From Polyangiaceae bacterium (GTDB taxonomy: Bacteria > Myxococcota_A > Polyangia > Polyangiales > Polyangiaceae): a stretch of DNA of 64,000 nucleotides. The translations under genes and the position numbers were made by a program. This document shows, piece by piece, positions 26,532-43,121 of this stretch; position 1 is the first letter of the stretch, and the number at the start of each line of letters is the position of its first letter. A model generated the notes under the pieces. That model saw only the letters and a program-made list of their open reading frames with translations, was not told the DNA's origin and did no database searches. The stretch is from contig JANRKO010000019.1 in assembly GCA_033763455.1 (NCBI GenBank), forward strand, positions 32,001-96,000, given 5' to 3'.

Positions 26532-26703
26532 GTTGCCCCCTCTAGCTCCGCTCAGGCGCGGAGCTCGTCTCCCCCTGGCCAGTCGCTCCGCTCTGGCGGG
26601 GGAAACCCCAGCAAACCGACCAAAAGCGCCCGTGGACGATTTTTACATCTTTGCGTTGTCACTCCGGCACCGAGCGACTATACGGGCAGCCCTCAAGCAA
26701 CAC

Positions 26704-26780
26704 GTCCCCGTCGTCTAGCCGGCCCAGGACACGGCCCTTTCAAGGCTGTAACACGGGTTCAAATCCCGTCGGGGACGCCA
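26704..26780 (+). tRNA. tRNA-Glu (anticodon TTC)
   Basis: Acceptor stem GTCCCCG/CGGGGAC, anticodon arm CGGCC-CTTTCAA-GGCTG, T-loop GGTTCAAATCC, encoded 3' CCA. Confidence 0.97.
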
Positions 26781-26850
26781 GTTTCTTCGAGTCGCAGAAC
26801 CTCTGCACGCTGATTGACCCGGTAATCAGCTTCGTGGATGCTGAAGGGTA

Positions 26851-27342
26851 ATGAGCGACCCCAATCGACGTGCATTTCTGGGCGGCGCGGCCTTATTAGC
26901 CATTCCGGCGCTGGTTGAGAACTGCGGGGAGGGGACGGCTGTTGGCAAGAGCGCGGATGAGCGCGTCGCTGAGCTCATCGCGTTGAGCCGCGACCAGCAC
27001 GGCAAGCCGCACGTGGCGCGGGTGGCATTCCTCACGCCTGAGCGCACCAGCGGGACGCTTCCTGTTTCGGCCGCGGAGGCCGCTGATCTTCGGGCGGTGC
27101 TCGCTTCGGGTGATTTTAAGCTCTTCCAAGAACGGGGCCTACGCTTCGACAACAAGAAGTTCGTGTACATCCGTGAGAGTGAGGAGGGCACCGTGGTGCA
27201 CGCGGTGCGGCGCGGGGAGTTCGTAACGATTCGCAAGGCTCGCAGTGAGCTTGTGGTGGCAACCAGTGTGGACGGGATGGCGCACCCGCGCGCTGTCGAA
27301 GCCGTTTACCAGTACGTGCAACGCTCCGCGGCAATCGCCTGA
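26851..27342 (+). CDS. Profilin-like protein with twin-arginine (Tat) signal, possible lipoprotein
   Basis: NRRAFL plus hydrophobic stretch plus Cys; VSAAEAADL...FQERGLRFDNKKFVYIR...VHAVRRGEFVTIRKARSELVVA...AVEAVYQYV follows the profilin pattern (E-helix, G-L-x-x-x-x-x-K-Y/F, strands, C-terminal helix); next to actin. Confidence 0.8.
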   Translation: MSDPNRRAFLGGAALLAIPALVENCGEGTAVGKSADERVAELIALSRDQHGKPHVARVAFLTPERTSGTLPVSAAEAADLRAVLASGDFKLFQERGLRFDNKKFVYIRESEEGTVVHAVRRGEFVTIRKARSELVVATSVDGMAHPRAVEAVYQYVQRSAAIA

Positions 27343-27356
27343 AGTTAGGAATAAGA

Positions 27357-28037
27357 ATGCACAAGCTTCAGCTCACACTGGCCGCACTGCTTTTTTGCGT
27401 ATTCGCCGCTGGCACAGCCAGCGCTGGAAGCTGCGAGCAGGAAGTGGTGGCAGAGTGCGTTGCCAATTCCTGCCCTACCTTTTGCAGGACGCTCGCCGAA
27501 GGCCACGTGGAGGCATGTAAGGTAGGGTGCACGGCACAAGATCGCTGTAAGCTTGCTCTATTTGGCGGCCAAGACCGCCCGGCGCAGGTCGAGCTGGATG
27601 CGCAGAAGCGCGAGCAGCTCATGAGTTGCCTCGCAGAGAACCGCAAGCAACCTGTCGTACCCAAGGAGCTCGGCAAACCGATCCGCACTGAGGCGGATTA
27701 CGTCGCCCCCTCTGAAGCGAAGACGAAAGCCGTCAAGCGCAGCAGCCTTAAGAACACCAAGGCAAGCAAGGCGGCGTGGAAAGCCCGCAAAGCTCGCTCA
27801 TTTGCTGAGCGCAAAGTTGGTTCAAAGCGCAAGGATCCGCTCACCTACGTGCCCCCGGCTGGGCCTGTGAAGTCTCCCCCGAGGCCTCCGCTTCCGAGGT
27901 CAGCACCTCCCGGGCCAATGCCGCCCAAGCCGATGCCACCGAAGCCGATGCCTCCCAAGCCCCGCCCACAGCCAGCGCCGCCGGCGCAAAGCCCGAGCGG
28001 CCAGCAGGCACCGAGTCCGGCGCCCGCGAGCCCCTGA
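27357..28037 (+). CDS. Secreted protein with 8-Cys domain, basic linker and proline-rich tail
   Basis: Sec signal ending ASA, AGGA ribosome-binding site, 14 nt after the profilin-like gene, (PMPPK)x3. Confidence 0.85.
   Translation: MHKLQLTLAALLFCVFAAGTASAGSCEQEVVAECVANSCPTFCRTLAEGHVEACKVGCTAQDRCKLALFGGQDRPAQVELDAQKREQLMSCLAENRKQPVVPKELGKPIRTEADYVAPSEAKTKAVKRSSLKNTKASKAAWKARKARSFAERKVGSKRKDPLTYVPPAGPVKSPPRPPLPRSAPPGPMPPKPMPPKPMPPKPRPQPAPPAQSPSGQQAPSPAPASP
27915..27959 (+). repeat. 15-bp coding tandem repeat x3 (PMPPK)
   Basis: ccaatgccgcccaag/ccgatgccaccgaag/ccgatgcctcccaag. Confidence 0.9.
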
Positions 28038-28076
28038 TTACCCTACGCCTCCCTACGAAGCTGCGGGTAAGTTCGC

Positions 28077-29237
28077 TCAGAAGCACTTGCGGTGCACGAT
28101 CCCCGGGCCTGCCTCGTCGTACTCAGCCTTGGTGATCCACATCTGCTGGAAGGTGCTCAGGCTCGCAAGGATGGAGCCACCGATCCATACCGAATATTTG
28201 CGCTCGGGGGGCGCGATGACTTTGACCTTCATCGTTGGGGGAGCCAGGTTGGTCAATTCCTTTTGCATACGCTCGGCAATCCCAGGGAACATCGTGCTGC
28301 CGCCAGCCAGCACGAGGTTGCTGTATAGATCCGCGCGGATATCGACGTCGCACTTCATGATCGAGTTGTACGTGGTCTCGTGGATCCCCACGGCCTCCAT
28401 GCCCAAAAAGCTGGGTTGGAAGAGCGCTTCGGGGCAACGGAAGCGCTCGTTCCCGATCGTAATAACCTGCCCGTCCGGGAGCTCGTAGCTCTTTTCCAGA
28501 CTGCTTGAACTCGCTGCTGTCTGCATCTCCGCGTCAAAGTCTAGGGCTACGTAGGCGAGCTTCTCCTTGATATCTCGAACGATCTCACGCTCTGCAGTTG
28601 TCGTGAAGGAATAGCCTCGCTCAGTCAGAATCTTCATTAGGTAATCAGTGAGGTCGCGGCCTGCGAGGTCGAGCCGCAGGATCGCGTGGGGTAGGGCGTA
28701 ACCCTCGTAGATGGGCACCGTGTGGGTTATCCCGTCGCCACAGTCGAAAACCAATCCGGTGGTGCGCCCCGAAGCGTAGAGGGCAAGTACGGCCCCCATC
28801 GCCACGTACATGGCGGGCGTATTGAACGTTTCGAACATAATTTGCGTCATCTTCTCACGGTTCGCCTTGGGATTGAGCGGGGGTTCCGTGAGCAACACGG
28901 GGTGTTCTTCTGGCGCCACGCGCAGCTCGTTGTAAAACGCGTGGTGCCAGATCTTCTCCATGTCGTCCCAGTTGGTGACGATGCCGTGTTCGATCGGATA
29001 CTTGAGCGTCAAGATCCCGCGCTTGGCCTGCGCCTCGTCGCCCACGTAAGCGTCTTTCTGGCCCATCCCCACCATCACCCCCTGGTGGCGTGGGCGGCCT
29101 ACGATGCTCGGGAATACCGCCCGCGGCGCGTCGTCGCCAGCGAAGCCGGCCTTAATCATCCCTGAACCGTTGTCGACGACTAGGGCTTGGACTTCGCCCT
29201 CGGTTTGTCCGAGGACTGGGCTGGGAACGAGGGGCAT
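28077..29237 (-). CDS. Eukaryote-type actin (not MreB/ParM/FtsA)
   Basis: [79 protein letters not shown]-terminal IVHRKCF; no introns. Confidence 0.99.
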
Positions 29238-29313
29238 GCCTCACGCTAACAGGAGAGCCTCGACGCGCACAATCGAGAGCACGTGCTGCTAACCGCAATT
29301 CACGGCAAAGTAG

Positions 29314-30720
29314 CTAACCGCTCGCTTCGCATGACCGCTGGATGGCCGAGTAGTGAGCATGTGCGGCGCGCAACATATGCTCATGCTCCGGGCTGAATGT
29401 ATCGATAATATCGAGGGCCCCCACCGGCCCAGCGCGGAACGCCAGCCAATCAGCCAGCATCCCACGCGCGCGCGCCTCGCCCGATACTGACAGCTGGAGT
29501 TCTTCCCTCCACACATCCGCCACTGATGCGATCCCCAAACGATCGAGCTCATCAGCATCGAGCGCATACCAGCGAGCCCGCTTCAGGGCCTCGCTCACAT
29601 CTCCATGAGCCACGGTCACCTCGATCGCGCGCTCAGGATCCGCGAGCAGCCATACCAACTTATCGCGTCGGAGCGGAGCGTCCTTTGGCAGCGGAAAGGC
29701 CAGCTTGGCTCGCTCACCATCCGGTGGCCCAGGCACAACGAACCCAGCGTAGACCCAGCGCTCCGTTGGCGTACGGCGCCCGTAAAACATCCGAACCGCC
29801 TCGCCCGCAGTGTAGTTCATGCCGGCAACTGCACGCAGAGAGTTGCCCTCTAGGAATGTGCTCTCGGCGCCCAGCGTTTCGTCGTGGTCCAGCAGATCCC
29901 AAAGCGGCACCAGGGCGAGCTCATCGGGTACGGCGGTTTGGCGGGACGAAAGGATCGCCCCTGCCCAAAGCCAACGCTGCAGCGTGAACGCCTCGAGCGG
30001 TAGCGGGCGTTTGGCGGGCTCCGTCAGCCGTAAGCGGTGGTGCGCGATGCAATAAAGCTGCAGCACTCCGGCGAGGAAGCTTCTTCCCATGTTTGCAGCC
30101 ACGAGGTGTGAGCCAGGCGAACGCGGCCAGCTGAGCGCCGTTCCGGCCACTTCTCCGGGCAGCGCTGCAACATAAGGTGCCCACGTGTTGGTAGCCTCGT
30201 TTACGTAGCGGGCCCGGAGCAACCAAAGCATCAAATTGCCTGGCCCGAAAAGCGGTGCTTCTTGGAGCCATGGGCCCAATATCGGATCAGCGAAAACGTC
30301 GCCGTTGCGCAACATCGCACTCAACGGCACCTCAACCAACGTGGCGCCCCTGGCGATTGGCGCTGTCGCCTTAACGCTTGCACCCTTGGGTGTTGCGAGC
30401 AAACGCAGCCCGGGCGCGAACCGAACGCCGTGCAAGGCCGCCCACGCGGCCAGTGCATCTAACGCCTGTTGAGATACCGGGAGCGATGGTGGATCCATGG
30501 GTTGGCACTTTTGCACCAACGCCGAAGCTTCGTGCAAATCAGGGAGTTCGAAGCTCTCCGCGTCCCAGGCCACGGCACGCCGAAGCCCGGCGATGCGCGC
30601 GAGCAGATGGGCAAGATCATCGATCGCCGTTTGCGCCTGCGCCTCGGAAGAGGCTTCGTTGGGGGAGTCGGGTTCCAGGTGATCATCTGAGCTAAGGGCG
30701 GGGAGCGGAACAAGTGGCAA
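29314..30720 (-). CDS. SET-domain protein of the SETD3/Rubisco-LSMT type, putative actin-histidine N-methyltransferase
   Basis: WAPYVAALP, LPLEAFTLQRWLWAGAILSSRQ, ALVPLWDLLDH, AGEAVRMFYG, GFV and a C-terminal LSMT-like helical domain; TTG start uncertain. Confidence 0.82.
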   Translation of the reverse strand: MPLVPLPALSSDDHLEPDSPNEASSEAQAQTAIDDLAHLLARIAGLRRAVAWDAESFELPDLHEASALVQKCQPMDPPSLPVSQQALDALAAWAALHGVRFAPGLRLLATPKGASVKATAPIARGATLVEVPLSAMLRNGDVFADPILGPWLQEAPLFGPGNLMLWLLRARYVNEATNTWAPYVAALPGEVAGTALSWPRSPGSHLVAANMGRSFLAGVLQLYCIAHHRLRLTEPAKRPLPLEAFTLQRWLWAGAILSSRQTAVPDELALVPLWDLLDHDETLGAESTFLEGNSLRAVAGMNYTAGEAVRMFYGRRTPTERWVYAGFVVPGPPDGERAKLAFPLPKDAPLRRDKLVWLLADPERAIEVTVAHGDVSEALKRARWYALDADELDRLGIASVADVWREELQLSVSGEARARGMLADWLAFRAGPVGALDIIDTFSPEHEHMLRAAHAHYSAIQRSCEASG

Positions 30721-30889
30721 ACGAGGGAGCTGTTAAGTAGCAGGAGTGCAAATGTCCTGCGCAGGCATATTTTGAGGGCAAACAACCGTATTTTGACCTG
30801 GTACAGGCTGGTGATGGCACCCTACCATTTGAGTTGGATTTTCCCGCTATTGCGCAGAGTTGAAATCCCAGCCCGGAAATGGTGAACCT

Positions 30890-32620
30890 GTGAAGTTATC
30901 GCCCGTTTTACCCCTAGGGGTGGTCTTGGTCAGCCTCAGTGTTGGTTGCTCTGGGCTGTTTGAGTCTAACAGCGGCCGAAAGTCGTCCTCGAACGGCAAC
31001 GAGCCAGCCGAGGCCGGCACAACGCCTGCATCTCCCACAGACACGCCTCCAGGTCCGGGCCCAAGCGAAATGCCCACCGTGCCCACCGCGCCGTCGCCTG
31101 GCGCTTGCACGCTTCCGGGTACACCCCTTGCGGTGCAAACGCGCCGGCTTACCCCTCGGCAGTACCAAACGACACTGGAAGCCGGGCTTGGGTTGAGCTT
31201 GCAGCCGGCTGAATTGCCTCAGTTTCAAGACGACAATCCCACCATCGGGCTTGCCAACGATCCTCAGAAGCTGCGCATCACCACTGTCTCGGTAGACAGC
31301 CTTTATGCCTCGCTGCTTGCTGTGTCCAAGCGGTCACTGGCTAACGTTTCTGATGTGCAGAGTTGTATCTCAGCTACGGGCACGGCGTGCTTCGAACAAC
31401 TTATCGATAGCTTAGGTCAGAAGTTGTGGCGAAGGCCTGTGGCAGCGGAGGAAAAGGCGGATTTGTTAGCGGGGGTGGCGAGCGTAGCTGCGGCTTCCGG
31501 TACGCGCGAAGATCAGGCGGATTTTCTCTTGCAAGCGCTGCAGTTTTCCCCCAATACGCTGTACCGGCTGGAGCTGGGGGATGCGACGGGCAACCTCACT
31601 GATCAAGAGCTCGCTAGCCTGCTTTCGTACACATTTTGGGACGCACCCCCAGATGCGGCGCTGTTCGCGGCCGCTCAGGCCGGTACGCTTCACACCCCAG
31701 GGGTGCTGAAGTCTGAAGCTCAGCGTTTGGCTCAGGATCCCCGTTTCCCGAAGGCGGTTGCGGGCTTTCTTTGGGATTTTTTGAAGCTCGAGAATATCTA
31801 CACGAAAAAGAAAGACGATACGCTTGGCCTCACGCCAGCGGTACGTTCCACGCTGGCGGCCTCCGCATCGGGTACGCTCGACCAAGCGCTCACTAGCGGG
31901 CAAGCTTCGCTTCTCGACGTGTTCTCCGGGGTGAGTTTCCCCGTGAACGATGAATTGGCACCGTTTTTCGGAGTGCCGGCGGTTGGCACTAGCCAGCTAA
32001 CGCCTCAAAGCCTCAGCCCAGAGCAACGCCTCGGCATCCTCTCGCACCCGGGCTTTCTGACGGTTCACGCTGGGGAAGGCTCCACCAGCATCGTCAAACG
32101 TGGCGTATTCGTTTTGGAGCAGCTACTCGGCGTGAAGATCCCCGCTCCGCCGCCCAATGTTCAAGGCATTGACCCCGCCACCATTCCCAATCTCGATACC
32201 GCCACTACCAGTGCGCGTGAGCTCTTGAAGGTGACGCACAGCGCGCAGCCCGCGTGCAACGGTTGCCACTCCATCATCGATCCTGCCGGATTTGGCCTGG
32301 AGAATTTCGATACCGTGGGGCATTTCCGAACGGTTGAAAAGCAGACCGTGCCGATCGACGCCTCAGGTAGCATCACCGTTGGTTCTGAAACGTTAACCTA
32401 TACCAATAGTATCGAATATATCCGAGCGCTGAGCAGCTCTCAGGCGCTGCGCAATGCTGTGGTTGAGCATTACTTCGCCTACGCGCTCGGGCAACTTGGT
32501 GACGGGTGTGAAGCCCATCGATTTAGCGAGGCAATAGCAAAAGCAAACGACTCGCTTTCTGCACTTCCAACCGAGCTGGTTGCCACTCAAAGCTTTGTGC
32601 GCCGCGCGCCCACCCCTTGA
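30890..32620 (+). CDS. DUF1592/DUF1588-family lipoprotein with CxxCH motif
   Basis: Lipobox SVGC, RRLTPRQY, SPNTLYRLE, LSYTFWDAPPD, TSIVKRG, CNGCH, GFGLENFD. Confidence 0.9.
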   Translation: MKLSPVLPLGVVLVSLSVGCSGLFESNSGRKSSSNGNEPAEAGTTPASPTDTPPGPGPSEMPTVPTAPSPGACTLPGTPLAVQTRRLTPRQYQTTLEAGLGLSLQPAELPQFQDDNPTIGLANDPQKLRITTVSVDSLYASLLAVSKRSLANVSDVQSCISATGTACFEQLIDSLGQKLWRRPVAAEEKADLLAGVASVAAASGTREDQADFLLQALQFSPNTLYRLELGDATGNLTDQELASLLSYTFWDAPPDAALFAAAQAGTLHTPGVLKSEAQRLAQDPRFPKAVAGFLWDFLKLENIYTKKKDDTLGLTPAVRSTLAASASGTLDQALTSGQASLLDVFSGVSFPVNDELAPFFGVPAVGTSQLTPQSLSPEQRLGILSHPGFLTVHAGEGSTSIVKRGVFVLEQLLGVKIPAPPPNVQGIDPATIPNLDTATTSARELLKVTHSAQPACNGCHSIIDPAGFGLENFDTVGHFRTVEKQTVPIDASGSITVGSETLTYTNSIEYIRALSSSQALRNAVVEHYFAYALGQLGDGCEAHRFSEAIAKANDSLSALPTELVATQSFVRRAPTP

Positions 32621-32636
32621 AACTACGAGGCACGTC

Positions 32637-34067
32637 ATGAAATCCCCTCAACTGACTCGTCGCTCACTTCTGGCCGGCCTTGGTGCAGGCACGGCGCTCG
32701 GCTCGCTTTTCCTCGATTCCCCCGTGGCGCGTGGCCAGGCAAGCGCGGCGCCCGTGCGCCTCTTGTTGATCCCACTGCAGCATGGCTGGGGCAGAGATCG
32801 AAATTTTCAGAACTTCGCTGGCACTGAATCCACTTTTACGATCCCGGCTCCGCTCACGGGCTTGGAGGCAATCAAGCATCAATGCGTGTTTGTGGACGGC
32901 CTGCGCGGCACGCTCTGGGGCAACGCTCACGACGTTTCGTATTCAGATATCTTTACGGCTTCGGTGCCGTGGGATGAAGGCAGCTCAGCACAGCTCGGTG
33001 CACAGTTCCCCGAGCCCCTCGGGCCCTCGATTGATTGGCACATTGCCAATACGTTAAAGAAGAATGTGTTCCGTGGCTCGGCCGGGTATCAATCCTGGGG
33101 TAAGCCCTATCACCCGCTGTGTTTCGACTCAGCCGCGCAACAGCAGGCATTCTACACCAACGCCCGCCAAGCATTTGACGCCGTGGTGGCCCCTCTTGCG
33201 CCGCCAGCAAACCCAACGGATTTGGCCGTGCGTAATGCCGTGCGCAACAATGTTTTTTCGTACGTTGCCAAAGACATGGATCGACTGATCACGCGTCTGA
33301 GCGGCACAGAGAAGCTCAAGCTGGAGGGGCACCTGGCTGCCGTGAATGATTTGAACCGGCGCATAACCGGAGGTGGCGGGCTGGGCGGAGGCACTTTGGA
33401 GATCCCGCCGCGACCAGGCGATATGCAAGCCTTCGAAAAGGAGGTGGACGACTTCTTTGATATGGTTCGCGTGCTCTTCACCGCGGATACGCATCGCGTG
33501 GCGGTGTTGGGCTTAGGGGAGCAGGTCAAAGATTGGACATGGACGGACGCGGCCAATAAGGCACAGGTTGGCAATATTTGGAATCTCGAGGGTTTCCATC
33601 ACGACGTTGCTCACCATGGCGATAAAGCCGACCAAAGGCGCTCTTTCGAAGGTTGGGCGGCTTGGTATGTGCGAAAGATTGTCTCGTTTGTGCAGCGCCT
33701 AGAGCAAACGCCAGATGTAGATGGCCGCATGCTCATCGATAACACGATTATTGTACTCACCGGCGAAGTTGAGACAGGAGAGCACGACACGCGCTGCAAG
33801 CTTCACACGGTGATCGGTGGGGGCGGCGGTATCCGGCGTGGGCGTTGGCTGAAGCTTCCGGATGTGGAGCCACGAAGTCGCGGCGGTGTGTTCATCGGCG
33901 GCAAGGATCGCGCGGGCACTACGATTGAGTCCGGCATCAACTACGGGTTGCCGTTTGGCCGACACCACCATGCCGATCTGTGGGTCACCATCGCCCGCCT
34001 GTGCGGTGCCCCTGTGGATACTTTTGGTACGGATATTTACAACTTCAGCCCGATATCACTCACTTAG
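32637..34067 (+). CDS. DUF1552-family protein with Tat signal
   Basis: TRRSLL signal, PSID, EKLKLEGHL, HHDVAH, LIDNT; usual partner of DUF1592. Confidence 0.85.
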   Translation: MKSPQLTRRSLLAGLGAGTALGSLFLDSPVARGQASAAPVRLLLIPLQHGWGRDRNFQNFAGTESTFTIPAPLTGLEAIKHQCVFVDGLRGTLWGNAHDVSYSDIFTASVPWDEGSSAQLGAQFPEPLGPSIDWHIANTLKKNVFRGSAGYQSWGKPYHPLCFDSAAQQQAFYTNARQAFDAVVAPLAPPANPTDLAVRNAVRNNVFSYVAKDMDRLITRLSGTEKLKLEGHLAAVNDLNRRITGGGGLGGGTLEIPPRPGDMQAFEKEVDDFFDMVRVLFTADTHRVAVLGLGEQVKDWTWTDAANKAQVGNIWNLEGFHHDVAHHGDKADQRRSFEGWAAWYVRKIVSFVQRLEQTPDVDGRMLIDNTIIVLTGEVETGEHDTRCKLHTVIGGGGGIRRGRWLKLPDVEPRSRGGVFIGGKDRAGTTIESGINYGLPFGRHHHADLWVTIARLCGAPVDTFGTDIYNFSPISLT

Positions 34068-34155
34068 CGGACGGGCCCTCGGTTCAGCGCCGAAGCGTCG
34101 GGCCTTAGACGCAAGCCTCCATACGAGGATCAGCTGGATGTGGTAACGGTATTGG

Positions 34156-34863
34156 GTGCTGAAGCGAGGCGTGTTTGCCCACCCGTGGACATCTAACGTC
34201 GCACTCTGGGCGGGGGTGGCGTTATTGGGATGTTGGCGCGCCGAGAGGCGCTCTGTGCTGGAGGCAGGAGGTGAGGGTGGTGGTGGTGGCGCAGCCACGG
34301 TTGCTGAACCACCCTGTACGGTGCCCTGTATGCCGTTGTTCGACGGCGCAGATGCTTCCGGGTGGAGTTACCTCGGCGGTGGCGAAATGCGACTTCTAGA
34401 TGGCTACGCGCGGACTCACGGGGACGGCGTTTCGCTGGGACTTTGGTATTACTCCCTTAGAACATTCAAGAATTTTGAGCTCAATGTGGAGTTTCGCCAA
34501 TCGGTAGTGGGTGCAAATTCTGGCGTGTTTGTGAGGTTCCCGGATCCGCGAGGCAACGTGCTTCGTCCCATAAGCCAAGGGTACGAGGTCCAGATCGCCC
34601 GCGCACCGGGTACCAGCGAAAGCACGGGGGCTATTTACTCTTTTCAGGCCGCGGATCCGAAAGGTGAGCTCACCGAACCAGGGCTTTTCAATCAACTCCA
34701 GATCCGCGTGGTGGATCAGAATTATGAAGTTAGCTTAAATGGGCAGCTGATTAATTCGTTTGTCGGGCGCCGCAACCTGGAAGGCTACGTTGGTATTCAG
34801 GTCCACGATTCACCGACAGATATCGTGGACGTCCGTCGAGTTGAGATTACCGACCTTCCCTAG
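34156..34863 (+). CDS. DUF1080 (3-keto-disaccharide hydrolase family) lipoprotein
   Basis: LFDG..SGW, FKNFEL, ANSGVFVR, GYEVQI, TGAIY, GYVGIQVH. Confidence 0.9.
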   Translation: MLKRGVFAHPWTSNVALWAGVALLGCWRAERRSVLEAGGEGGGGGAATVAEPPCTVPCMPLFDGADASGWSYLGGGEMRLLDGYARTHGDGVSLGLWYYSLRTFKNFELNVEFRQSVVGANSGVFVRFPDPRGNVLRPISQGYEVQIARAPGTSESTGAIYSFQAADPKGELTEPGLFNQLQIRVVDQNYEVSLNGQLINSFVGRRNLEGYVGIQVHDSPTDIVDVRRVEITDLP

Positions 34864-34888
34864 ACAGGTCGGCGCTAGGGAAGGTCGG
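34850..34888. terminator. Hairpin between convergent genes, likely terminator
   Basis: Perfect 14-bp inverted repeat CCGACCTTCCCTAG / CTAGGGAAGGTCGG; no clear U-tract. Confidence 0.6.
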
Positions 34889-34908
34889 CAGGGCGCGAAC
34901 GTGTCCGC

Positions 34909-36969
34909 TTAGAGTGATTCCATGTAGGCAACCAAATCTTGCACTTCGGTGGCCCCTAGACTTGAAGTGTGCCCGTGCAGATCCCCTCCGCCACACGAGG
35001 TATCGGTGAAACGCGCCGACAGCGTTGGCGCACAGCCGTCGTGCATGAAAGGCGCACGGCGCGAAATGCCAATGAGGGACGGGGTTTGAAGGGCGGGCTC
35101 CCCGTTACGAACCTGACGATTCAGGTTATCGGTGAGCTTGGCTCCTGAGTGGCAGCCCGAACAGCCCACTTCTGCGGACTCAAACAAGGCCTTGCCGCGC
35201 TGGACCGCAGGATCGCCCGAGATGCGCGGGCTAGGAGGAGCTTTGAGACCAAAGAGCCAGCCTTCCAAGGCCTTGAGGCGTTCGGGGCTTTGGAAGACCC
35301 CGCCCATACGACGGACGAAGACTTCATCCACGAGGGCACTCATCCCACCCAAGTCACCGTCCCAGTGAAATGGTTGAGTTTCCGCGAGCCCATTGTGCAG
35401 CGACTGAGTGCGGCGCGAGCCGATGCCTGAGAACTTCCAAACACGCCCATCTTCAGTTCCTTCGGGGTGACAGGAAGCACAGGCGATTCCAGCCCCAGAA
35501 TCGCGGTTGAAAATATCGTGACCAGTGTCCCTCACCGAGATCCCACCCAGGTCAACCACTCTCCAACCCGGAAACGTGCCCGTTGTGGTAAATCCGTTCA
35601 CAACCTCGGCCACCTTGTCGACGATGTAGAGGCGCGCGGGCTCTCGTGATTGCACGACGAGCTGCTCGGAGTTCGCAGGGCTGAATGCCACCGCAATAGG
35701 TTGTGCCTCGGTCGGCACGTTCACGGGGGTGCCGAAGCTACACCCAAGGTTGGCGTCCGTGTCGGTCGGAACCTGCGACCCACTGTAGAGCATCACGCTG
35801 CCAGCCGAGAATGGACCGAAGGAGGGCACAGGCGGGGCGGAGAAGGTCCCACCAGTGCCAGGCTGTCCAAAGGACGGTTGCGGCGTATTAACGTCGGCCA
35901 AGCCAGCCGATGCGGTCGCGATCCACGAGCCATTCGGGGAACTGGCGAGATCCACCGCGAGCACCGCACCGCTGAGCGATGTATTCGCTTGGAGTTGCGT
36001 AGCACCGACAGTGGAGAAGCCGGTGAGTTCGCTCTGCACAATGGATTCGCAGGGAAACGAATTGGCACCGGCTCCGTACGGGCTGGGCGCCTCTGGCTCT
36101 TTCTTGCCGATGTCGAGTACGGCATCGGTTGCTACCTGGTGAAGCATGAGAAGCTGACCGCTGGAGGAGGCGAGCGTGCGGTAGGCTGCGGTAGGCTCAA
36201 ATGTGGTGGCGAGAGGACCTTCGGGTGCTCCGGAGTGAAGCGTTCCTGGAACCGCACGGGGGCGCATGCGCCCAATCTCGGCGCCCAGCTTCGACAGGAC
36301 GATAAGCTCCGGCGAGCGGAATCGACTAACGACAATGTCCGTGCCTCTGACCACGACATCTCGCAAATCAGTTTCAATAAACTGCCGTGTTTTGGGCTCG
36401 CCACCGGCTGTGGGAAATGCGACCAGATCTCCGTCGGCACAAGCAACGTACACAAGATCGGTGGAGCTATCGACAGCGATACCGCGGGGCGAACCGCACA
36501 CGGCTCGGCGGAAAAGCACGCTGTGCGCCACTGGATCTAGGCTCACGATGGCACCTCCACCACGTAGGATGGCGTGCACTCTACCTTCAGGATCTTGCAC
36601 CAGGCGCCCCGGCTCATCTCCCGCATTGACCGAAACAACGCCTTCAACTTTGCCTGAGGCCATGCCAACGAAAAGGAACCTATCGCGATCTGGATCCGCA
36701 ACGACTGCGGTGGCGCCGCTATTGGTGATAAGAAGAGTGCCTCCGCTAATCGGGGGCGGAGGTTTGGCAGCAACAACTGGCGGGCGAGTGTCCGTAGGGA
36801 TGACCCGCGCGAAAGCGGCCTTGCCACCGGACCCATCAGGGCCGAACTGCTCCGGTACGGGCAGCGTCGCCCCTGTGCCCGTTGCATCTGCGGAGCAGCC
36901 CTCCACAAGGAGCAGTGCGACCAAGGGCAAGGTTGCGGTAAAGACGCGTAGATGCCTTAAATTCAACAT
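34909..36969 (-). CDS. Lipoprotein with beta-propeller region and di-haem cytochrome c (peroxidase-like) domain
   Basis: EGC lipobox, two haem motifs CASCH and CSGCH, PFHWDG, TPSL, APFMHDG. Confidence 0.85.
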   Translation of the reverse strand: MLNLRHLRVFTATLPLVALLLVEGCSADATGTGATLPVPEQFGPDGSGGKAAFARVIPTDTRPPVVAAKPPPPISGGTLLITNSGATAVVADPDRDRFLFVGMASGKVEGVVSVNAGDEPGRLVQDPEGRVHAILRGGGAIVSLDPVAHSVLFRRAVCGSPRGIAVDSSTDLVYVACADGDLVAFPTAGGEPKTRQFIETDLRDVVVRGTDIVVSRFRSPELIVLSKLGAEIGRMRPRAVPGTLHSGAPEGPLATTFEPTAAYRTLASSSGQLLMLHQVATDAVLDIGKKEPEAPSPYGAGANSFPCESIVQSELTGFSTVGATQLQANTSLSGAVLAVDLASSPNGSWIATASAGLADVNTPQPSFGQPGTGGTFSAPPVPSFGPFSAGSVMLYSGSQVPTDTDANLGCSFGTPVNVPTEAQPIAVAFSPANSEQLVVQSREPARLYIVDKVAEVVNGFTTTGTFPGWRVVDLGGISVRDTGHDIFNRDSGAGIACASCHPEGTEDGRVWKFSGIGSRRTQSLHNGLAETQPFHWDGDLGGMSALVDEVFVRRMGGVFQSPERLKALEGWLFGLKAPPSPRISGDPAVQRGKALFESAEVGCSGCHSGAKLTDNLNRQVRNGEPALQTPSLIGISRRAPFMHDGCAPTLSARFTDTSCGGGDLHGHTSSLGATEVQDLVAYMESL

Positions 36970-37129
36970 GCTGATCCCTTTCATGAACGAGCTGGTCCGC
37001 TCACCTGGGTGATGTCGAAAGCATATTAGTTTGATCACCCTATAAGTGTCAGCTTATTCAGACGCGTCCCGGCTTGAACCGCATTGGCAAGGCCTGGAGC
37101 TATGTGCGCCAGCGAGGGTTAACCCTTGT

Positions 37130-37561
37130 TCAGGACTCCGAGGGAGCGGCCTCGCAGGCGCCGGGCACAGGAGCTAGATCTTTACCGAGTAAGAACGCCG
37201 CGGGGCGGAAGGCGGTGCCCACTTTGACGAAGAGCTTCGCGGTTCCCTGGTACACGCAACCCGTGATGTCAGGCTCCCATTCTTCGGACCCGCTGTAGCG
37301 AAAATCGATAACAAACGGGACGAACTTTGCACCCTTGCTGTCTTGGGCAAGCTTCGCTTCCAAGATGCGTATGCGGCGCTCGCGTGGTGGGGGCCGACCG
37401 CGAGAAAAACGGCTCCCTTTCTGTTCGCGCGCGGCGAGCGGCTTGACGAGCCCCTGATCCACCCGGAGCTTCGCCCACTCCGAAAGCGAGGGTTCAGCCG
37501 CTGCGAGCGATGGAGCCAGAAGTAGAACGACTGCGCAGAACGAGGAACGATGAAAGCCCAT
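37130..37561 (-). CDS. Hypothetical secreted protein
   Basis: Signal peptide ending AAA; two Cys in the mature part. Confidence 0.65.
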   Translation of the reverse strand: MGFHRSSFCAVVLLLAPSLAAAEPSLSEWAKLRVDQGLVKPLAAREQKGSRFSRGRPPPRERRIRILEAKLAQDSKGAKFVPFVIDFRYSGSEEWEPDITGCVYQGTAKLFVKVGTAFRPAAFLLGKDLAPVPGACEAAPSES

Positions 37562-38222
37562 GGTAGATCCTTTGCAACGCGTGGATGAATTGAGTGAACG
37601 AGAAAGCGAATCGCCTCGATACCGCTTCGGCGACTAAGGCGCTGAGAATGACGGGCACCCATAGAGCGATTACGTAAGCCACGTCCGGATTAACGCCTGC
37701 CTCATCGAAACCGATGAGCATTGCACGCGACGTGACGGCCACGCTCATCTGGGCGATGACGTGGCGCATGGCTCTGCTGTGTGAGATCATGTCACGTCGC
37801 CGTGCTGCGCGAATGCCGTAAGCCATGCAGCCCGCGACAATGGCGCCGGATAGTAAAAAGCCCGCAGTTACGCCGGCTCCGCCCTTAGCGTCGAACGCAA
37901 GTACGGCACCCGAGGGCACCAACCCCAGCAGAACCAAGACACCCGCTAACCGCCCCTGATAGCGGTGCCAGCGGGGGCGGCGCTGAAGCCAGCGCATCGT
38001 CAACATCAAACACAGCGGGAACGAAACCAGAGCGGCGGCTACGTGCACCTTGAGCGCCGGGAGCCAAAGCGACTCGAACTTCACCACCGGTAGGCGCTCG
38101 ATGATGAAAGGCGCCAGCGTGTCCGGATCAAAATACTCCAGGCTTGCCGCTGTGATCGCGGCCGACCCCGCGAACATTACAGCTAAAAAGAGCCCTCGAA
38201 GAATTCCCGCAAAGACGCGCAT
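37494..38222 (-). CDS. DUF2306-like membrane protein
   Basis: HV, WHRYQGR, HSRAMR motifs between TM helices. Confidence 0.75.
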   Translation of the reverse strand: MRVFAGILRGLFLAVMFAGSAAITAASLEYFDPDTLAPFIIERLPVVKFESLWLPALKVHVAAALVSFPLCLMLTMRWLQRRPRWHRYQGRLAGVLVLLGLVPSGAVLAFDAKGGAGVTAGFLLSGAIVAGCMAYGIRAARRRDMISHSRAMRHVIAQMSVAVTSRAMLIGFDEAGVNPDVAYVIALWVPVILSALVAEAVSRRFAFSFTQFIHALQRIYHGLSSFLVLRSRSTSGSIARSG

Positions 38223-38336
38223 TTTGCCTTGGACTCTACGTGCCCCCAAAGATTTGCTTCCCCGAGGCGCCCAAAATCACATTTTTGTTGGCGCATTCGA
38301 TTGAATGAAATGACGCGCACCTACGTATGCACCGGC

Positions 38337-39146
38337 TCAGCGCCAGCGGCTTGGAGGTACTCCGAGGTGGGCGCGGAACTGAGCGCTGAACTCGAAGGGT
38401 GAGGGGTAGCCGAGCTCAGCAGCCACAGACTGCACGCTGCGGCCGGCTCGAAGCAGGGCGCAGGCATGGTCGATGCGGCGCCGGATGCGGTAGCGGTGCG
38501 GGGGTAAGCCGGTGCGGTTACGGAATTCTTTGCGGAATCGTTCATAGTCGAGGCCCCGTGAGTTGCACCAGGCTGCGAGATCCAGGCGACGTGAGCTTTG
38601 CTCGGCCAGCAAGCGGCAGGCTTCCTCGATGGGATCGGTTGCGCGGGCTGGCGGTTCGGCGCTGGCCATGGCGGTGACACTGATGTCGATGATGCGGGCC
38701 ACCTGCTGGGGCAACTGGCGTTCGCTGGCGGCGGCGAGCTCTCCTACCAGATCTAACATGCGGCTCCTCACGTGCGTGCCCGGCGGGAGCGACCATGCCG
38801 GCGGATTGATGGGCAATACACCAAGTTCGGCGAGCGGCTGGTGCAACTGTGGCCCGAGCTCGACGAAGACCTCCAACCAGTTCGAGGAGGGGTCAATATA
38901 CGTGGAGTGCGCTGTGTTGGGAAGGCGCTGAAAGCACCACCCAGGGGCCAAATTCCAGGCATTCCCATGTTGGTCAAGGTAACGCCCACGGCCACGCAAT
39001 ACGAGGATGAGTGACCACGCCACCATGCGTTTCTCGCGTTCGTCCACCGCGACTCCGGATTTGTCCAGGACGCCGGCGCCGATGCGGTCGTAGGTGCCGT
39101 GTCCGAGGGCACGATAGACGTTACGCACGGGAATGTTCTTTTCCAT
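38337..39146 (-). CDS. AraC-family transcriptional regulator
   Basis: C-terminal FRNRTGLPP...VAAELGYPSPFEFSAQFRAHLGVPPSRWR; divergent from the GH2 gene; start uncertain. Confidence 0.92.
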   Translation of the reverse strand: MEKNIPVRNVYRALGHGTYDRIGAGVLDKSGVAVDEREKRMVAWSLILVLRGRGRYLDQHGNAWNLAPGWCFQRLPNTAHSTYIDPSSNWLEVFVELGPQLHQPLAELGVLPINPPAWSLPPGTHVRSRMLDLVGELAAASERQLPQQVARIIDISVTAMASAEPPARATDPIEEACRLLAEQSSRRLDLAAWCNSRGLDYERFRKEFRNRTGLPPHRYRIRRRIDHACALLRAGRSVQSVAAELGYPSPFEFSAQFRAHLGVPPSRWR

Positions 39147-39221
39147 TTTCCATATGTTCGCATCCAGATCCGCTATGGGCAACGGGGGAGGGCAGGCGTA
39201 GGAGTTGCCACAGAGGACCCT

Positions 39222-42200
39222 ATGGCCAAACCGAGCAGCTCCAAAACCGCCACTCTTACTGCCAAAGACAGCCTGATCCCCTGGCTTGCCCCTGAACTTA
39301 CGGGCATCAACCGCCTACGTGGCAGGGCCTTCGGCTATGGGTTCCCAAGCGTCGAAGACGCGCTTGCAGGCAGCAAGCCCGAAATGCGTTCGCTCGATGG
39401 CGTCTGGAGGTTCAAGCTCCTCGGCCGCCCCGAGGACACGCCGGCAGATTTCCCTTCGCCCGCGCTTAAAGACGCACACTGGCACAATATAGAGGTGCCC
39501 GGCTGTTTCACCATGCAGGGCTTCGGTAAACCTATTTACACGAACGTCAAGCTGCCATGGGTCTGCCGTTATCCTGAGGTGCCGGATGAGAACCCGACTG
39601 GGCTTTATCGCGTACGCTTCCAGGTGCCCAAAGCCTGGGCCGGTAAGCGCCTGATCCTCCGCTTCGGATCCATAGAGAGCGTTGGGAGTGTGTGGGTCAA
39701 CGGGGTAGCCGTTGGGATGACGAAGGACTCGCGCCTCCCGAGCGAGTTCGACATTACAGCGGTCGCGAAGCTGGGTGAAAATGTGTTGGCGGTCCAGGTC
39801 ATCCAGTGGTCCGATTGCACGTTCATCGAAGACCAAGATCAGTGGTGGCAGGCGGGTATTGCGCGCGAGGTCGAACTCCTCGCTTACCCCAAGGTTCACC
39901 TAGAGGATGTCTTTGCGAAGGCGGGCTTTGACTATGTGAAGGGCTCTGGCAGCCTTGAAATCAAGGTGCGCGTGCATCAGACGCCGGCCCCGGGTTGGAA
40001 GGTCCGCGCCCGTTTGTTCAACGCCAAGGGCAAGCTGACTCAAAAGGCGCCGTTTGAGGCAGAGGTCACCTGGTTCGAACCAGCTCAGCCGCACACGCGG
40101 GAGGAGCACGCGGCCGTCTTGAAGACGGTGTTGCCCAAGGTAGACGCTTGGTCGCATGAGTCGCCGACGCTCTACACGCTGGTCGTGTCGTTGGTCGACC
40201 CTGCGGGCAAGGAGGTCGATCATACTCGCCAACGCATCGGCTTCCGCAGCGTTGAGATCAAAGAGCGTTCGCTCTTACTGAACGGCAAACGGGTGTTCAT
40301 CCGGGGCGTCAATCGCCATGAGCACCACGATCGATACGGCAAGGTGGTCGATGCGGATACAGCGCTCCGGGATATTCAGGTGCTCAAGCAGTTCAATTTT
40401 AACGCCGTGCGCACTTCACACTACCCGCCGCACCCGAGCTGGTTCGATCTGTGTGACGAACACGGGATCCTGTGCATCGACGAAACCAACCTCGAGGCAC
40501 ACCACCACTACCACGATATCTGTAACGATCCGCGCTATGCCTCGGCTTTCTTGGACCGTGGCAGCCGCATGGTCCTGCGCGATCGCAACCATCCTTCGAT
40601 CATCATGTGGTCACTCGGGAACGAGAGTGGCTACGGGCCGAACCACGACGCCATGGCTGGCTGGATGCGTCACGCCGACGGTACCCGCATCATCCACTAC
40701 GAGGGAGCTATTGCTGTCGCCGGTTGGAACAACGGGCATGTGGGCTCCGATCTGGTGTGCCCCATGTACCCTGCGCCGAACGAGCTGATCCGGCACGCCA
40801 CCACCACCAAAGATTGGCGGCCCATCATTATGTGCGAATACGCGCACGCGATGGGCAATTCATGCGGTGGCCTGAGCGACTACTGGCACGCTTTTGAGAA
40901 AACACCGGGCATGCAGGGTGGCTTCATCTGGGAGCTGCTCGATCATGGGATCCGCAAGCAAATCGGTAAAGATATGCCGCTCGGTGCGGACACTAAGGCT
41001 AAACCCACGGGTCGCGCCCCGGACATCGGTTGGCCGGGAGATAATGTATATTGGGCTTACGGCGGAGATTTCGGCGAGGTCACCCACGACACGAACTTCG
41101 TGTGCGATGGTCTGCTCTGGCCTGATCGGACCCCGCACACTCCGATGTGGGAGGCGAAGGTGCTGTTTCAGCCTCTAGAAGTACGTTTGATGCCGGGCGC
41201 TCGGCAAACCCCGCGTGGGGTGCAGATCCGTTCAAAATATGACTTTATCAGTACAGCGCATCTGGCTGGGTACTGGGAGTTAACAAGCGATGGCAGCGTG
41301 CTCGAATCTGGCAAGCTACCCAGGCTCAACCTGAAGCCGGGTGAGACCGCCAAGATCCAGGTGCCGTGTTCCAGCCCGAAAGTTCGCACCGGGCAAGAAG
41401 CCCATCTTATGTTGCGTTGGTACGATACACGCGAAATGCCCTTAACGGGGCGTAATCACGAGGTCGCCTGGGCCCAGCTTGCGCTACCCACCGTGGCCAA
41501 GGCCAAAGCTAAGAAAGCTAAAGAAGCCTCGGCTGCTCTACGTGCTGGTGGCAAGCTCACCGTAGGCGAAAGCAAGTCCACTATCACCATTGCTGGTCCG
41601 GGTGTTGAGGTCGTGATCGAGCGCTCGAGCGGGCGGCTGAGCGCCTGGACGGTTGGAGGGGTCGAGATGCTGAAAGCAGGCCCACATCCGTGTGTTTGGC
41701 GTGCACCGACCGACAACGACGGCATTCGTCTGCGAGACATGCACCGCGATCCGATCGCGGAGCCCGAGAATCCCTGGGTAAACAAGCCGTTGCGCAGGTG
41801 GATGGTCGCTCACCTCGATGAGGCTCGGACAGCAGTCGAGAAGCTGTCAGTGCGGTCCGTTCGCGGCGGCGTTGAGGTGGTTTGGTGCACTCGTACTTGG
41901 GGCAAAGATAAGGTCAGAGCTGTCGTGGTTGAGCACCGTTTGCTGGTCGGAAGCGATGGTTCATTGGCCTTCAGCCACCGTTTCGACGTGCATCAAGATC
42001 TGCCCGATCTGCCACGCGTCGGCGTGCACTTGCTGTTGCGAGCTGAGCTCGATCAACTTGAGTGGCTGGGCCTTGGCCCACACGAGACTTACTGCGACCG
42101 CCGAACGTGCGGCTTAGTTGGTCGTTTCGCTTCGAGCGTGCTCGATCAGTACATCCCGCACATCATGCCGCAGGAGCACGGTCACCACTGCGACACGCGT

Positions 42201-42503: not shown

Positions 42504-42517
42504 TTTCAGCCTACTCG

Positions 42518-43105: not shown

Positions 43106-43121
43106 TCCATTGACTTTTAGC

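Follow-up and report, generated by a model that had tools for sequence, protein, structure and literature searches.

A conventional eukaryote-type actin gene in a recurrent four-gene module of Myxococcota, beside genes for a SETD3-like methyltransferase and a profilin-like protein with a predicted twin-arginine signal

An actin some 90% identical to those of eukaryotes is thought to depend on helpers found in eukaryotes only, CCT and prefoldin for its folding and SETD3 and NAA80 for its maturation. The locus described here raises the question of how the gene for such a protein came to lie in a bacterial contig, with which genes it travels, and what its product could do there. It belongs to a Polyangiaceae bacterium (GenBank assembly GCA_033763455.1, contig JANRKO010000019.1), of which a stretch of 64,000 nucleotides, positions 32001-96000 of the contig, was analyzed and is referred to as the window; the actin gene occupies window positions 28077-29237 on the minus strand. 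The data make it highly probable that this gene is real, intact, under selection and bacterial, that the conventional actin it encodes has eukaryotic ancestry, and that it is one of four genes of a module circulating in a few Myxococcota.

The actin must start at the ATG at 29237: an in-frame TGA stands two codons before it, and no alternative start precedes the conserved core. Residues 15-386 matched the Pfam Actin family (PF00022) over profile positions 3-410 of 410 at 494.5 bits (cut-off 27). The best PDB chain in a phmmer search was the major actin of Dictyostelium (3chw_A, 782.8 bits, residues 15-386 against 4-375, no gaps), followed at 780.3 bits by the animal 'Actin, cytoplasmic 1' (6tf9); all alignments were without gaps. 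An earlier note on this DNA, made from the letters alone, had described a gap-free match with the D-loop, His73 and the penultimate Cys, and these alignments confirm it: the D-loop, His73 (within YPIEHGIV) and Cys374 (in the C-terminal HRKCF) are all present. The note had also estimated about 35 substitutions and about 90% identity to beta-actin, with several changes from Ser to Ala. Counted by hand, there are 38 differences over 374 positions from the cytoplasmic actin chain (336/374, 89.8% identity), 6 of them Ser to Ala, and 36 over 372 from the Dictyostelium chain (336/372, 90.3%). The strings that the note had likened to amoebozoan actins, TMFPG among them, are indeed letter-identical in the Dictyostelium chain, while the cytoplasmic actin chain differs in three of the strings named; the latter also has HETTYNS. 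As a signature of amoebozoan origin they did not hold up, as the margin of Dictyostelium over animal actins was only 2.5 bits and the nearest sequence was an unlabelled metagenome actin (91% identity).

Two features of conventional actin are lacking. Gln137, which positions the water for hydrolysis and was invariant in 7/7 eukaryotic references (alignment A7), is replaced by Gly (AMGAV versus AIQAV), and the second phosphate-binding loop carries three changes relative to VMDSGDGVTH; in conventional actin both Gln137 and the unchanged second loop have a role. The N-terminus is extended by 11 non-acidic residues. The earlier note mentions neither this extension nor the change at 137, nor the neighbouring genes described below. 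The gene has no introns and is present in single copy in the window genome (G000). The NCBIfam models of MamK, BeeR and crenactin scored far under their cut-offs. Residues 286-385 (window 28077-28376) matched the NCBIfam family 'syringactin' (NF040575, a profile of 286 positions) over 100 residues at 144 bits (cut-off 300). This partial match implies the existence of a named, shorter, actin-derived bacterial family, on which no paper was found in the literature searched.

The actin gene is bacterial DNA, and contamination is excluded. This is deduced from its position about 60 kb into a contig of 243,083 bp (C19, with the window at 32001-96000), from its bacterial composition at third codon positions, and from the recurrence of its neighbours beside actins in other Myxococcota assemblies. 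One flank carries cmk (cytidylate kinase), rpsA (ribosomal protein S1), an AI-2E transporter, FHIPEP, FIST, PP2C, ddl (D-Ala-D-Ala ligase) and tRNA-Glu, and the other a DUF1592/DUF1552 pair, a hydrolase, AraC, LacZ and a Ser/Thr kinase; residence in a bacterium, as the earlier note had assumed, is thus borne out by a 243-kb contig with cmk, rpsA, ddl and a tRNA gene. The GC content is even across the window (0.54-0.62). The GC content at third codon positions (GC3) of the actin gene was 0.775 against a genome mean of 0.654 (standard deviation 0.036), the 99th percentile of 2,994 long open reading frame (ORF) proxies, and its codon-usage index against the genome's own codons stood at the 98th percentile; for the actin gene and the profilin gene described below, GC3 lies at the 98th-99th percentile. 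The note had said that codons end in G or C like those of the neighbours; they do end in G or C, at a level higher than the neighbours. Its suggestion of codon amelioration is upheld by a composition shifted towards the host, the GC3 of bacterial actins following the GC of the bacterial host: 0.32 in Microcystis, 0.39 in Microcoleus, 0.83-0.85 in two Myxococcales metagenome-assembled genomes (MAGs) and 0.99 in a Kofleriaceae MAG (75.5% GC), a span of 0.32-0.99 over hosts of 43-75% GC. In a search of 5.8 billion proteins, the top identity to the window actin was at most 92% among the matches listed, and the exact protein occurred on one contig alone. A look-up of sequencing runs listed five from three studies (word shares 0.71, 0.26, 0.10, 0.05 and 0.03), four of which contain all or part of the stretch; no RNA run was listed as containing it. 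Ribosomal protein S1 of the window genome was 70, 66 and 58% identical to that of three Myxococcota bearing the cassette or an actin, compared with 49% for a verrucomicrobial and 45% for a gammaproteobacterial genome; in the analysis the host was placed in Myxococcota on these identities only.

The actin gene, its three partners and the adjoining tRNA gene were assigned as follows, with the evidence in parentheses.

26704-26780, plus strand: tRNA-Glu (TTC) (ARAGORN; Rfam tRNA, 59.4 bits)
26851-27342, plus strand: profilin-like protein with a twin-arginine translocation (Tat) signal, 163 residues (Pfam, AlphaFold2, Foldseek)
27357-28037, plus strand: Cys-rich exported protein, 226 residues (alignments A2 and A6; orthologues beside actin)
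28077-29237, minus strand: conventional eukaryote-type actin, 386 residues (sole ORF there; Pfam, PDB phmmer)
29314-30720, minus strand: SETD3-like SET-domain methyltransferase, 468 residues, start TTG (PDB, profile, Foldseek, Atlas)

The SETD3-like gene lies 76 nt upstream of the actin gene on the same strand. Its product had no Pfam match, and its assignment is supported by the following data. SETD3 alone was matched among PDB sequences at E<=1 (best E 1.8e-15), and the family profile scored 87.1 bits against SETD3 and 19.3 bits against Rubisco LSMT, the next SET protein. An AlphaFold2 model was of moderate confidence (mean predicted local distance difference test score, pLDDT, 68.9); its Foldseek matches were SETD3 chains at all of the top 20 ranks (E from 5.6e-15, template modelling (TM) score 0.43-0.49), then LSMT, then SETD6. 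The neighbours in the ESM Atlas were clusters of eukaryotic protein-histidine N-methyltransferases (feature score 0.97, TM 0.75). Within the family of eight, W274, D275, H279 and R316 were invariant and Y313 was kept in 7/8, whereas Arg215, in an alignment read by eye, aligned with a non-basic residue. SETD3 is the methyltransferase of actin His73 in eukaryotes, and residues 66-88 of the window actin were identical at 23/23 positions to the peptide used in a structural study of SETD3, according to the part of that study available here (PMC6400499).

The seven full-length relatives (P0002-P0008) have 708-815 residues. A C-terminal GNAT domain was found in 6/8 aligned members, so that six of the seven relatives are fused to a bacterial GNAT acetyltransferase; in the SETD3-like protein of locus L058 the domain scored 40.6 bits (cut-off 20.7). 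In 13 genomes of the phylum sample the GNAT module of about 270 residues also exists by itself, as a separate protein (100-156 bits), and it is therefore taken to be a bacterial addition. In eukaryotes, N-terminal acetylation of actin is carried out by NAA80. The GNAT module was considered as an NAA80 orthologue and dropped, since it matched generic GNAT, RimI and N-terminal acetyltransferases only.

A further observation concerns the N-termini of the actin and the SETD3-like protein, which share the start MPLVP-x-P-x-L (MPLVPSPVL and MPLVPLPAL; window 29211-29237 and 30694-30720, minus strand). The two starts are identical at 18/27 nt, with mostly synonymous differences and unrelated DNA upstream, and among ORFs of at least 100 residues in the 6.56-Mb genome these two alone carry the motif. 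Orthologues of both proteins have other, mostly acidic N-termini. A general sorting signal was rejected as the meaning of the motif, because it was found in only those two ORFs.

The profilin-like protein matched Pfam Profilin (PF00235) at 30.4 bits (cut-off 25), and 11/11 members of its family matched at E<=0.1. The AlphaFold2 model (pLDDT 83.4) retrieved profilins as all top Foldseek matches (TM up to 0.77, root mean square deviation 2.5-3.5 A). The N-terminus, MSDPNRRAFLGG, reads as a twin-arginine signal, in which RRAFLGGAALLAIPALV is the consensus followed by a hydrophobic stretch, with the mature domain beginning at about residue 35. The pattern RR-x-F-L plus a hydrophobic stretch was present in 10/10 N-terminally complete members, within a conserved extension of about 30 residues. 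Pfam TAT_signal matched 6/11 of the profilins at E<=0.1, the window copy not among them, and the best score was 21.6 bits (cut-off 22.7). The N-terminus of the family profile also matched the signal of the arsenite oxidase subunit AioB in the PDB, which we take to be a Tat substrate, and one relative is annotated by NCBI as 'twin-arginine translocation signal domain-containing protein'. TatC is encoded in the window genome (221.5 bits). To our knowledge, the profilins of eukaryotes, Asgard archaea and Microcystis are cytosolic and have no signal peptide, in which the window profilin differs.

A model of the complex of mature profilin and actin gave an ipSAE of 0.87 against 0.00 for the best control, with at least 87% of contacts shared between runs and a partner pLDDT of at least 87. 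The same mark was reached by 116/157 solved complexes and 2/215 mismatched pairs; these counts apply only roughly, because the alignments for the model were made in this analysis. The predicted contacts on actin fall at residues 166-174, 284-289, 351-355 and 369-375, the classical profilin site.

The gene for the Cys-rich protein starts 14 nt after the profilin gene, and from this spacing the two probably form one operon. Its product has a Sec signal peptide and a domain of about 95 residues in which eight Cys are invariant; the other parts are a basic linker, which contains a W...F motif, and a tail rich in Pro. The tail, PMPPKPMPPKPMPPKP, is peculiar to the window copy, and those of the other members are basic and variable. 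Orthologues adjoin actin in L026, L029, L058 and G200. A HMMER search of 1.84 billion representatives returned 46 at E<=1e-3, of which 7 were cassette-type; the others are small exported proteins that adjoin none of the other actin loci gathered. Searches of Pfam, the PDB and the Atlas with this protein gave no match.

Whether these genes belong together was judged from their recurrence. Actin was scanned for in one genome per prokaryotic species, which gave 76 loci with actin relatives. When the three neighbours were compared with the 76 loci by tblastn, they matched L026, L029 and L058 alone, all labelled Myxococcota and here grouped with the window as the cassette loci. In L026 (Kofleriaceae MAG, 223-kb contig) the actin was 85% identical to that of the window and the profilin, Cys-rich and SETD3-like proteins 63, 61 and 64%; in L058 (Myxococcales MAG) the corresponding values were 77% and 46, 38 and 56%. 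In L029 (Myxococcales MAG) the actin was 82% identical and co-directional with the profilin and Cys-rich genes, where the contig ends. The order of the genes varies among loci and the module genes stay together, in Myxococcota assemblies of 65-75% GC. Two ORFs of L026, a locus of 75.5% GC, are anomalous: where the SETD3-like ORF should encode the GNAT part, its translation is rich in Arg and out of frame (L026:8522-10768), and the Cys-rich ORF extends about 290 nt into the actin gene in antisense (L026:6840-7904). Both may be frameshifts or assembly errors in that MAG.

Beyond these loci the partners are rare. The SETD3-like and profilin-like proteins had eight relatives each among the 5.8 billion proteins, either unlabelled or labelled Kofleriaceae, Deltaproteobacteria or Myxococcota, and the partners are publicly annotated as 'hypothetical protein', 'GNAT family N-acetyltransferase' or 'twin-arginine translocation signal domain-containing protein'. 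Across 400 sampled genomes of the phylum, a search with a stricter first look detected the SET part in the window genome alone, which is a floor; in 401 genomes of the phylum sample, actin was found in eight at E<=1e-30 and the Tat-signal profilin in four. Variants of the module were found in G200, of the same family as the window genome, where profilin, Cys-rich protein and actin follow one another in a 3.8-Mb contig (L126:6745-9014); in G142, where the profilin adjoins an actin of 52% identity (L127:6989-8977); and in a Joint Genome Institute contig of 1.9 kb, where it adjoins a diverged actin (L098:2-928). The profilins of all three carry the Tat motif. These variants have no SETD3-like gene nearby, their actins are 67, 52 and 62% identical to the window actin, and residue 73 is Arg, Arg and Gln, respectively. 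The ORF of the G142 actin carries a long acidic and Lys-rich N-terminal repeat. Scans of metagenome contigs gave none with the SETD3-like profile and one, L098, with the profilin profile. Scans of viral contigs with the two profiles gave none, and hence no sign of a viral vector in that collection.

All four module genes are under purifying selection. The ratio of nonsynonymous to synonymous substitution rates (dN/dS) was 0.09-0.25 for actin (0.09-0.14 against the three cassette orthologues), 0.23-0.59 for the profilin, 0.22-0.32 for the SETD3-like protein and 0.19-0.50 for the Cys-rich domain; the ratios are rough, dS being near saturation (1.0-1.35 between actin and its orthologues). The purifying selection proposed for the actin in the earlier note was therefore found against bacterial orthologues. 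The distribution of changes in actin was also supportive. Over the four cassette actins, the profilin surface was substituted in 5 of 96 cells versus 242/1392 elsewhere, and in segment 66-88, recognised by SETD3, 4/92 versus 243/1396. For the window actin itself the counts were 0/24 and 0/23, compared with 36/348 positions changed elsewhere. Both surfaces are well conserved in eukaryotes too, which makes these counts supportive only.

Residue 73 appears to vary with the enzyme. In the Myxococcota group, 3/3 genomes with a SETD3-like gene keep His73. Four of the five searched genomes in which no SETD3-like gene was found have Arg, Tyr, Arg and Arg at this position, and the fifth, L029, keeps His73 and has its contig cut off at the relevant place.

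Gln137 is kept in 2/4 of the cassette actins. Across 29 bacterial actin loci of at least 5 kb (the window counted, L037 and L045 set aside) it is replaced in 19, by G, A, N, D, P, S, T or R, and in both bacterial clades of the tree described below. Examples are L059 of Microcystis (Gly, as in the window), L061 of Dolichospermum, L027 and L064 of Microcoleus, L042, L046 and L066. Short contigs of the contaminant type that reach site 137 keep Gln, except for the N-rich contig L074. This pattern suggests that fast ATP hydrolysis may have been lost repeatedly once actin lives in bacteria. The short contigs form a class of their own: many 'bacterial' actin matches lie on contigs of only 0.4-2 kb (e.g., L020, L021 and L017), and most of these actins share 84-93% identity with that of the window. 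Dozens of isolate and MAG assemblies are concerned, filed under names such as Shimia, Devosia, Microbacterium and Haladaptatus. The contigs have the look of eukaryotic DNA contaminating public genomes of bacteria and archaea.

The ancestry of the actin was addressed with a maximum-likelihood tree of 43 rows, with 13 long-branch or near-duplicate rows excluded beforehand, thin sampling of eukaryotes and an arbitrary root. The earlier note's assignment to the eukaryotic type agrees with this tree, in which the window actin falls within the eukaryotic actin radiation. It belongs to a group of seven rows (ultrafast bootstrap (UFBoot) 86, Shimodaira-Hasegawa-like approximate likelihood ratio test (SH-aLRT) 91) together with L026, L029, L058, L046, L066 and L032, and this group lies inside a 20-row set of plant, dinoflagellate, amoebozoan-type and flatworm actins (93/91). 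A second clade (100/97) holds all seven cyanobacterial actins, including that of Microcystis, and five from other phyla, with the window actin outside it; from this well supported second clade at least two acquisitions of actin by bacteria are deduced, as far as the sequences tell. A clade with the amoebozoan Pyxidicula neighbours the bacterial group and does not surround it. An amoebozoan donor was considered, and gave no resolution with the labelled sequences at hand. The ultimate origin of the actin is placed by the tree among eukaryotes. Joint origin of the six Myxococcota actins was not rejected (approximately unbiased (AU) test, p 0.31).

The L032 member of the group represents a third kind of bacterial actin module. 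The locus (L032:4401-6770, in an 8.8-kb contig of GC 0.31 from a MAG labelled Rickettsiales) encodes a canonical profilin (Pfam 84 bits, no signal peptide), an actin 88% identical to that of the window (GC3 0.167) and Cofilin_ADF (55 bits). The three genes are co-directional and flanked by genes for a GatA-type amidase and GlyS-beta at one end and for ThyX at the other, and the actin groups with the Myxococcota actins in the tree.

The more recent history of the module in the window species was read from the synteny with its congeners. The tRNA-Glu gene is the last syntenic element, and the module starts 70 nt downstream of it. DNA around the tRNA gene is 91-92% nucleotide-identical to the congeners G001 and G003, and the likeness stops after the tRNA. 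The flanking proteins of the congeners are 70-93% identical up to tRNA-Glu and again from window position 34156, and other genes occupy the gap between these points in the congeners. The actin was not found in 40/40 relatives, three of them congeners in the same genus. Since the module was not found in the three congeners or the 37 other relatives and sits in a variable slot 3' of tRNA-Glu, its immediate donor to the window genome was probably another bacterium; the same absence, the gap in synteny and the raised GC3 point to a bacterium of higher GC. The transfer straight from a eukaryote that the earlier note had proposed is thus probably not what happened here, given three partners shared with other Myxococcota, 40/40 relatives without the actin, a slot adjacent to a tRNA gene and a GC3 above that of the host. 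A scan for promoters and terminators gave nothing above shuffled expectation, and PADLOC matched 0/7 proteins.

Other DNA has moved in this region. The DUF1592/DUF1588 (PSD/PSCyt) protein beside the module (window 30860-34067) belongs to a family with 56-73 matches per genome in the three congeners. The DUF1592/DUF1552 pair lies elsewhere in the congener genomes, from which it too is deduced to have moved into the variable slot. A second stretch absent from the syntenic region of the congeners, window 34909-42503, is bordered by two genes that in G001 and G003 are direct neighbours, and holds a 709-residue ORF without a Pfam match, DUF2306, an AraC regulator and a beta-galactosidase of 1134 residues.

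From these data the following history and working are proposed. In an ancient transfer, actin, profilin and SETD3 would have passed from a eukaryote to a bacterium and the module would have been assembled. The bacterial parts, namely the GNAT domain fused to SETD3, the Cys-rich protein and the Tat signal on profilin, would have been added later, and the module would then have reached the window species from another myxobacterium of higher GC. The actin would fold without CCT, bind nucleotide and form complexes or filaments. No group II chaperonin was found in the genome, whose three Cpn60 genes are all GroEL, and no folding help of the CCT or prefoldin type. The profilin would bind the barbed face of actin monomers. 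The SETD3-like enzyme would act on actin, with His73 as the likeliest target because the 23-residue segment recognised by SETD3 is unchanged. Turnover of ATP by the window actin would be slow, since Gln137 is Gly. We infer these steps with confidence falling in the order of folding without CCT, binding of the monomer by profilin, modification around His73 by the SETD3-like enzyme, and slow hydrolysis. Searches of the window genome for cofilin, gelsolin and FH2 found none, and control genomes gave no match either, so these negatives lack validation. Conserved export signals are present on the profilin and on the Cys-rich protein, and none on the actin. Either profilin encounters actin inside the cell and is exported afterwards, or the two cross the membrane as a pair; most of the weight not given to export of the actin goes to a cytoplasmic role, with profilin acting before it is exported.

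Several points weigh against this reading and were taken into account in grading it. The residues on which SETD3 activity depends are not all kept: the AdoMet (S-adenosylmethionine)-binding Asn278 is Asp in 8/8 members, within an invariant WDLLDHD, and Asn256, which orients His73, is Thr in 6/8 members, the window copy included, and Asn in 2/8. In the human enzyme N278A nearly abolishes kcat and N256A or N256D is crippling, as given in the available part of the structural report (PMC6400499). From these replacements and the human mutants, the activity of the enzyme or its target may be a different one. Pfam SET (PF00856) and Rubis-subs-bind (PF09273) matched 0/8 members at E<=1. The window enzyme is accordingly called SETD3-like by sequence, fold and context; two residue tests failed, and it is no proven SETD3. 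The window copy moreover ends before the GNAT domain, and no orthologue was found elsewhere in the genome; with this loss and an actin without Gln137, the window module may be partly degenerate. The co-variation of residue 73 with the enzyme comes from few and related genomes, and His73 is also kept in actins of the cyanobacterial type, whose genomes were not searched for the enzyme. Profilin and actin are a textbook pair, so the score of the model may reflect likeness to solved complexes rather than binding by the window copy, and the two proteins are predicted to reside in different compartments. The Myxococcota actin group has moderate support only (UFBoot 86, SH-aLRT 91), and the four cassette actins did not come out as monophyletic, monophyly merely escaping rejection (AU p 0.28). 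Within 26600-43200 no second copy (att) of the 3' end of the tRNA gene was found, and no integrase was seen in the insert.

Four other explanations were weighed against the bacterial module. Eukaryotic contamination or a chimeric join has next to no probability: the genome does look like a MAG (92 contigs, 2.8% contamination), and many public 'bacterial' actins are contaminant contigs of 0.4-2 kb, but the contig here is 243 kb long and uniform in composition, and the gene, 60 kb into it, has no introns and uses codons at the high-usage end of the host. Bacterial-style neighbours, the Tat-signal profilin and the GNAT-fused SETD3, recur in independent assemblies, including contigs of 223 and 278 kb, and a related module lies in the 3.8-Mb contig of G200. 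A direct and recent transfer of actin alone from a eukaryote, with the neighbours unrelated, would account for an identity of about 90% to eukaryotic actins versus 77-86% to the bacterial orthologues, and for the absence of the gene from the congeners. It is nevertheless deemed highly improbable, because at least three further assemblies have the three neighbours together with actin, the tree joins the cassette actins to others from Myxococcota, the GC3 is bacterial and above the host mean, a dS of 1.0-1.35 to the orthologues fits slow change of the protein rather than recent entry, and no eukaryotic protein exceeded 92% identity among the matches listed. A real module that has lost its function in the window species and is heading for loss is likewise very unlikely. 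The lost GNAT domain, Gly at 137 with three changes in the second phosphate-binding loop, Thr at 256 and a species-specific, variable location would fit such decay. The four ORFs are intact, however, and no other cassette actin has diverged as little as that of the window, with its changes concentrated away from the profilin surface and the SETD3 segment (0/24 and 0/23 versus 36/348) and with GC3 and host-codon usage at the 98th-99th percentile. Replacement of Gln137 also speaks less for decay when it is seen in 19/29 bacterial loci of at least 5 kb, among them Microcystis, whose actin is reported to polymerise in the portion of the study available (PMC3254629).

The remaining alternative is that the folded profilin carries actin through the Tat pathway as a 'hitchhiker', after maturation of the actin by the SETD3-like/GNAT enzyme in the cytoplasm, and that actin, profilin and Cys-rich protein have their site of action in the periplasm, at the cell surface or on other cells, for instance grazers or prey that are eukaryotes. 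It draws on the Tat motif in 10/10 complete profilins, found again in G200, G142 and L098, on a TatC of 221 bits, on a Cys-rich partner with a signal peptide and eight invariant Cys in all copies, and on a canonical predicted interface with actin. Profilin needs no cofactor, and use of Tat would fit a folded protein or complex, as Tat biology is generally understood; loss of Gln137 would preserve bound ATP where it is not replenished. Set against this, the actin itself has no signal, the argument runs through gene linkage and predicted signals, TAT_signal scores stay just below the cut-off (best 21.6 versus 22.7), Gln137 is kept in 2/4 cassette actins, and the actin retains three or four cysteines. 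Export of this kind is regarded as unlikely. Its fuller version, in which an enzyme-modified, near-canonical actin hitchhikes with profilin and then, together with the Cys-rich partner, forms a one-shot filament or an agent against eukaryotic cells, is a longer shot still. In known cases of Tat hitchhiking, HybO/HybC and DmsA/DmsB of E. coli, partners without a signal are carried along, and the window pair resembles them in that one member of a predicted tight pair has a twin-arginine signal. The known hitchhikers are cofactor-bearing redox enzymes. We know of no cytoskeletal protein that uses this route.

The preferred reading, a circulating bacterial module, can be set beside systems already described. 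The BARP protein of Haliangium ochraceum is said to have been described by Wu et al. in 2009. As far as the accessible text goes, BARP is the product of a eukaryotic-type actin-family gene in a myxobacterium and was reported to be expressed; it is described there as an actin-related protein, with no mention of a profilin or SETD3 partner in that text, and is set apart from the window actin by this description (PMC3035250). The pattern-based scan made here did not retrieve BARP. An actin-like protein of 'Ca. Uab amorphum' is also in print (PMC6906331). The closest precedent is ActM/PfnM of Microcystis aeruginosa PCC 7806 (Guljamow et al.; PMC3254629), of which the available part reports a eukaryote-type actin beside a profilin on a genomic island, ascribed to eukaryote-to-prokaryote transfer. 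It likewise reports that ActM was soluble when made in E. coli, from which folding without CCT is deduced for that protein, and terms PfnM the only known prokaryotic profilin homologue in 2012 (PMC3254629). The window locus resembles it in combining a eukaryote-type actin with a profilin in a bacterium, and the two share Gly at residue 137, read for Microcystis from locus L059. It differs in that ActM is 65% identical to actin by that report and 64% to the window actin, whereas the window actin stands at about 90%; in that ActM falls in the separate bacterial clade (100/97); and in that PfnM is 84% identical to profilin, whereas the window profilin is barely detectable by sequence and has a Tat signal. 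No SETD3-like, GNAT or Cys-rich partner is described in the available part of that report (PMC3254629).

Compared with the eukaryotic set of SETD3, NAA80 and profilin, the module has an enzyme closest to SETD3, a GNAT domain fused to it in relatives, a profilin with a canonical predicted interface and an unchanged recognition segment in actin. It differs from that set in that the GNAT is of a bacterial stand-alone type without specific likeness to NAA80, Asn278 is replaced by Asp and Asn256 in most members by Thr, export is predicted for the profilin, and folding help of the CCT or prefoldin type was not found. A bacterial link between SETD3 and actin, a profilin with a Tat signal and this cassette were not found described in the literature searched, with most subscription journals outside it. 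Thus eukaryote-type actins in bacteria are known already, and the module of a SETD3-like/GNAT protein with a Tat-signal profilin is, as far as found, undescribed.

The finding places a near-canonical actin in a genome that has GroEL only, together with its own SETD3-type enzyme, to which an acetyltransferase is fused in relatives. It offers a simple system for asking whether a near-canonical actin can fold without CCT, and which of the 36-38 changes would permit it. The variants of the module with and without the enzyme amount to a natural experiment on whether methylation of His73 and its enzyme evolve together, and the purpose of a profilin with a Tat signal is made testable. Bacteria have taken up actin toolkits repeatedly and in differing compositions, with actin and profilin in cyanobacteria, profilin, actin and cofilin in a contig labelled Rickettsiales, and the type described here in Myxococcota. 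This bears on the mobility of 'eukaryotic signature' cytoskeletal genes between domains and on how such genes are read in debates on the origin of eukaryotes.

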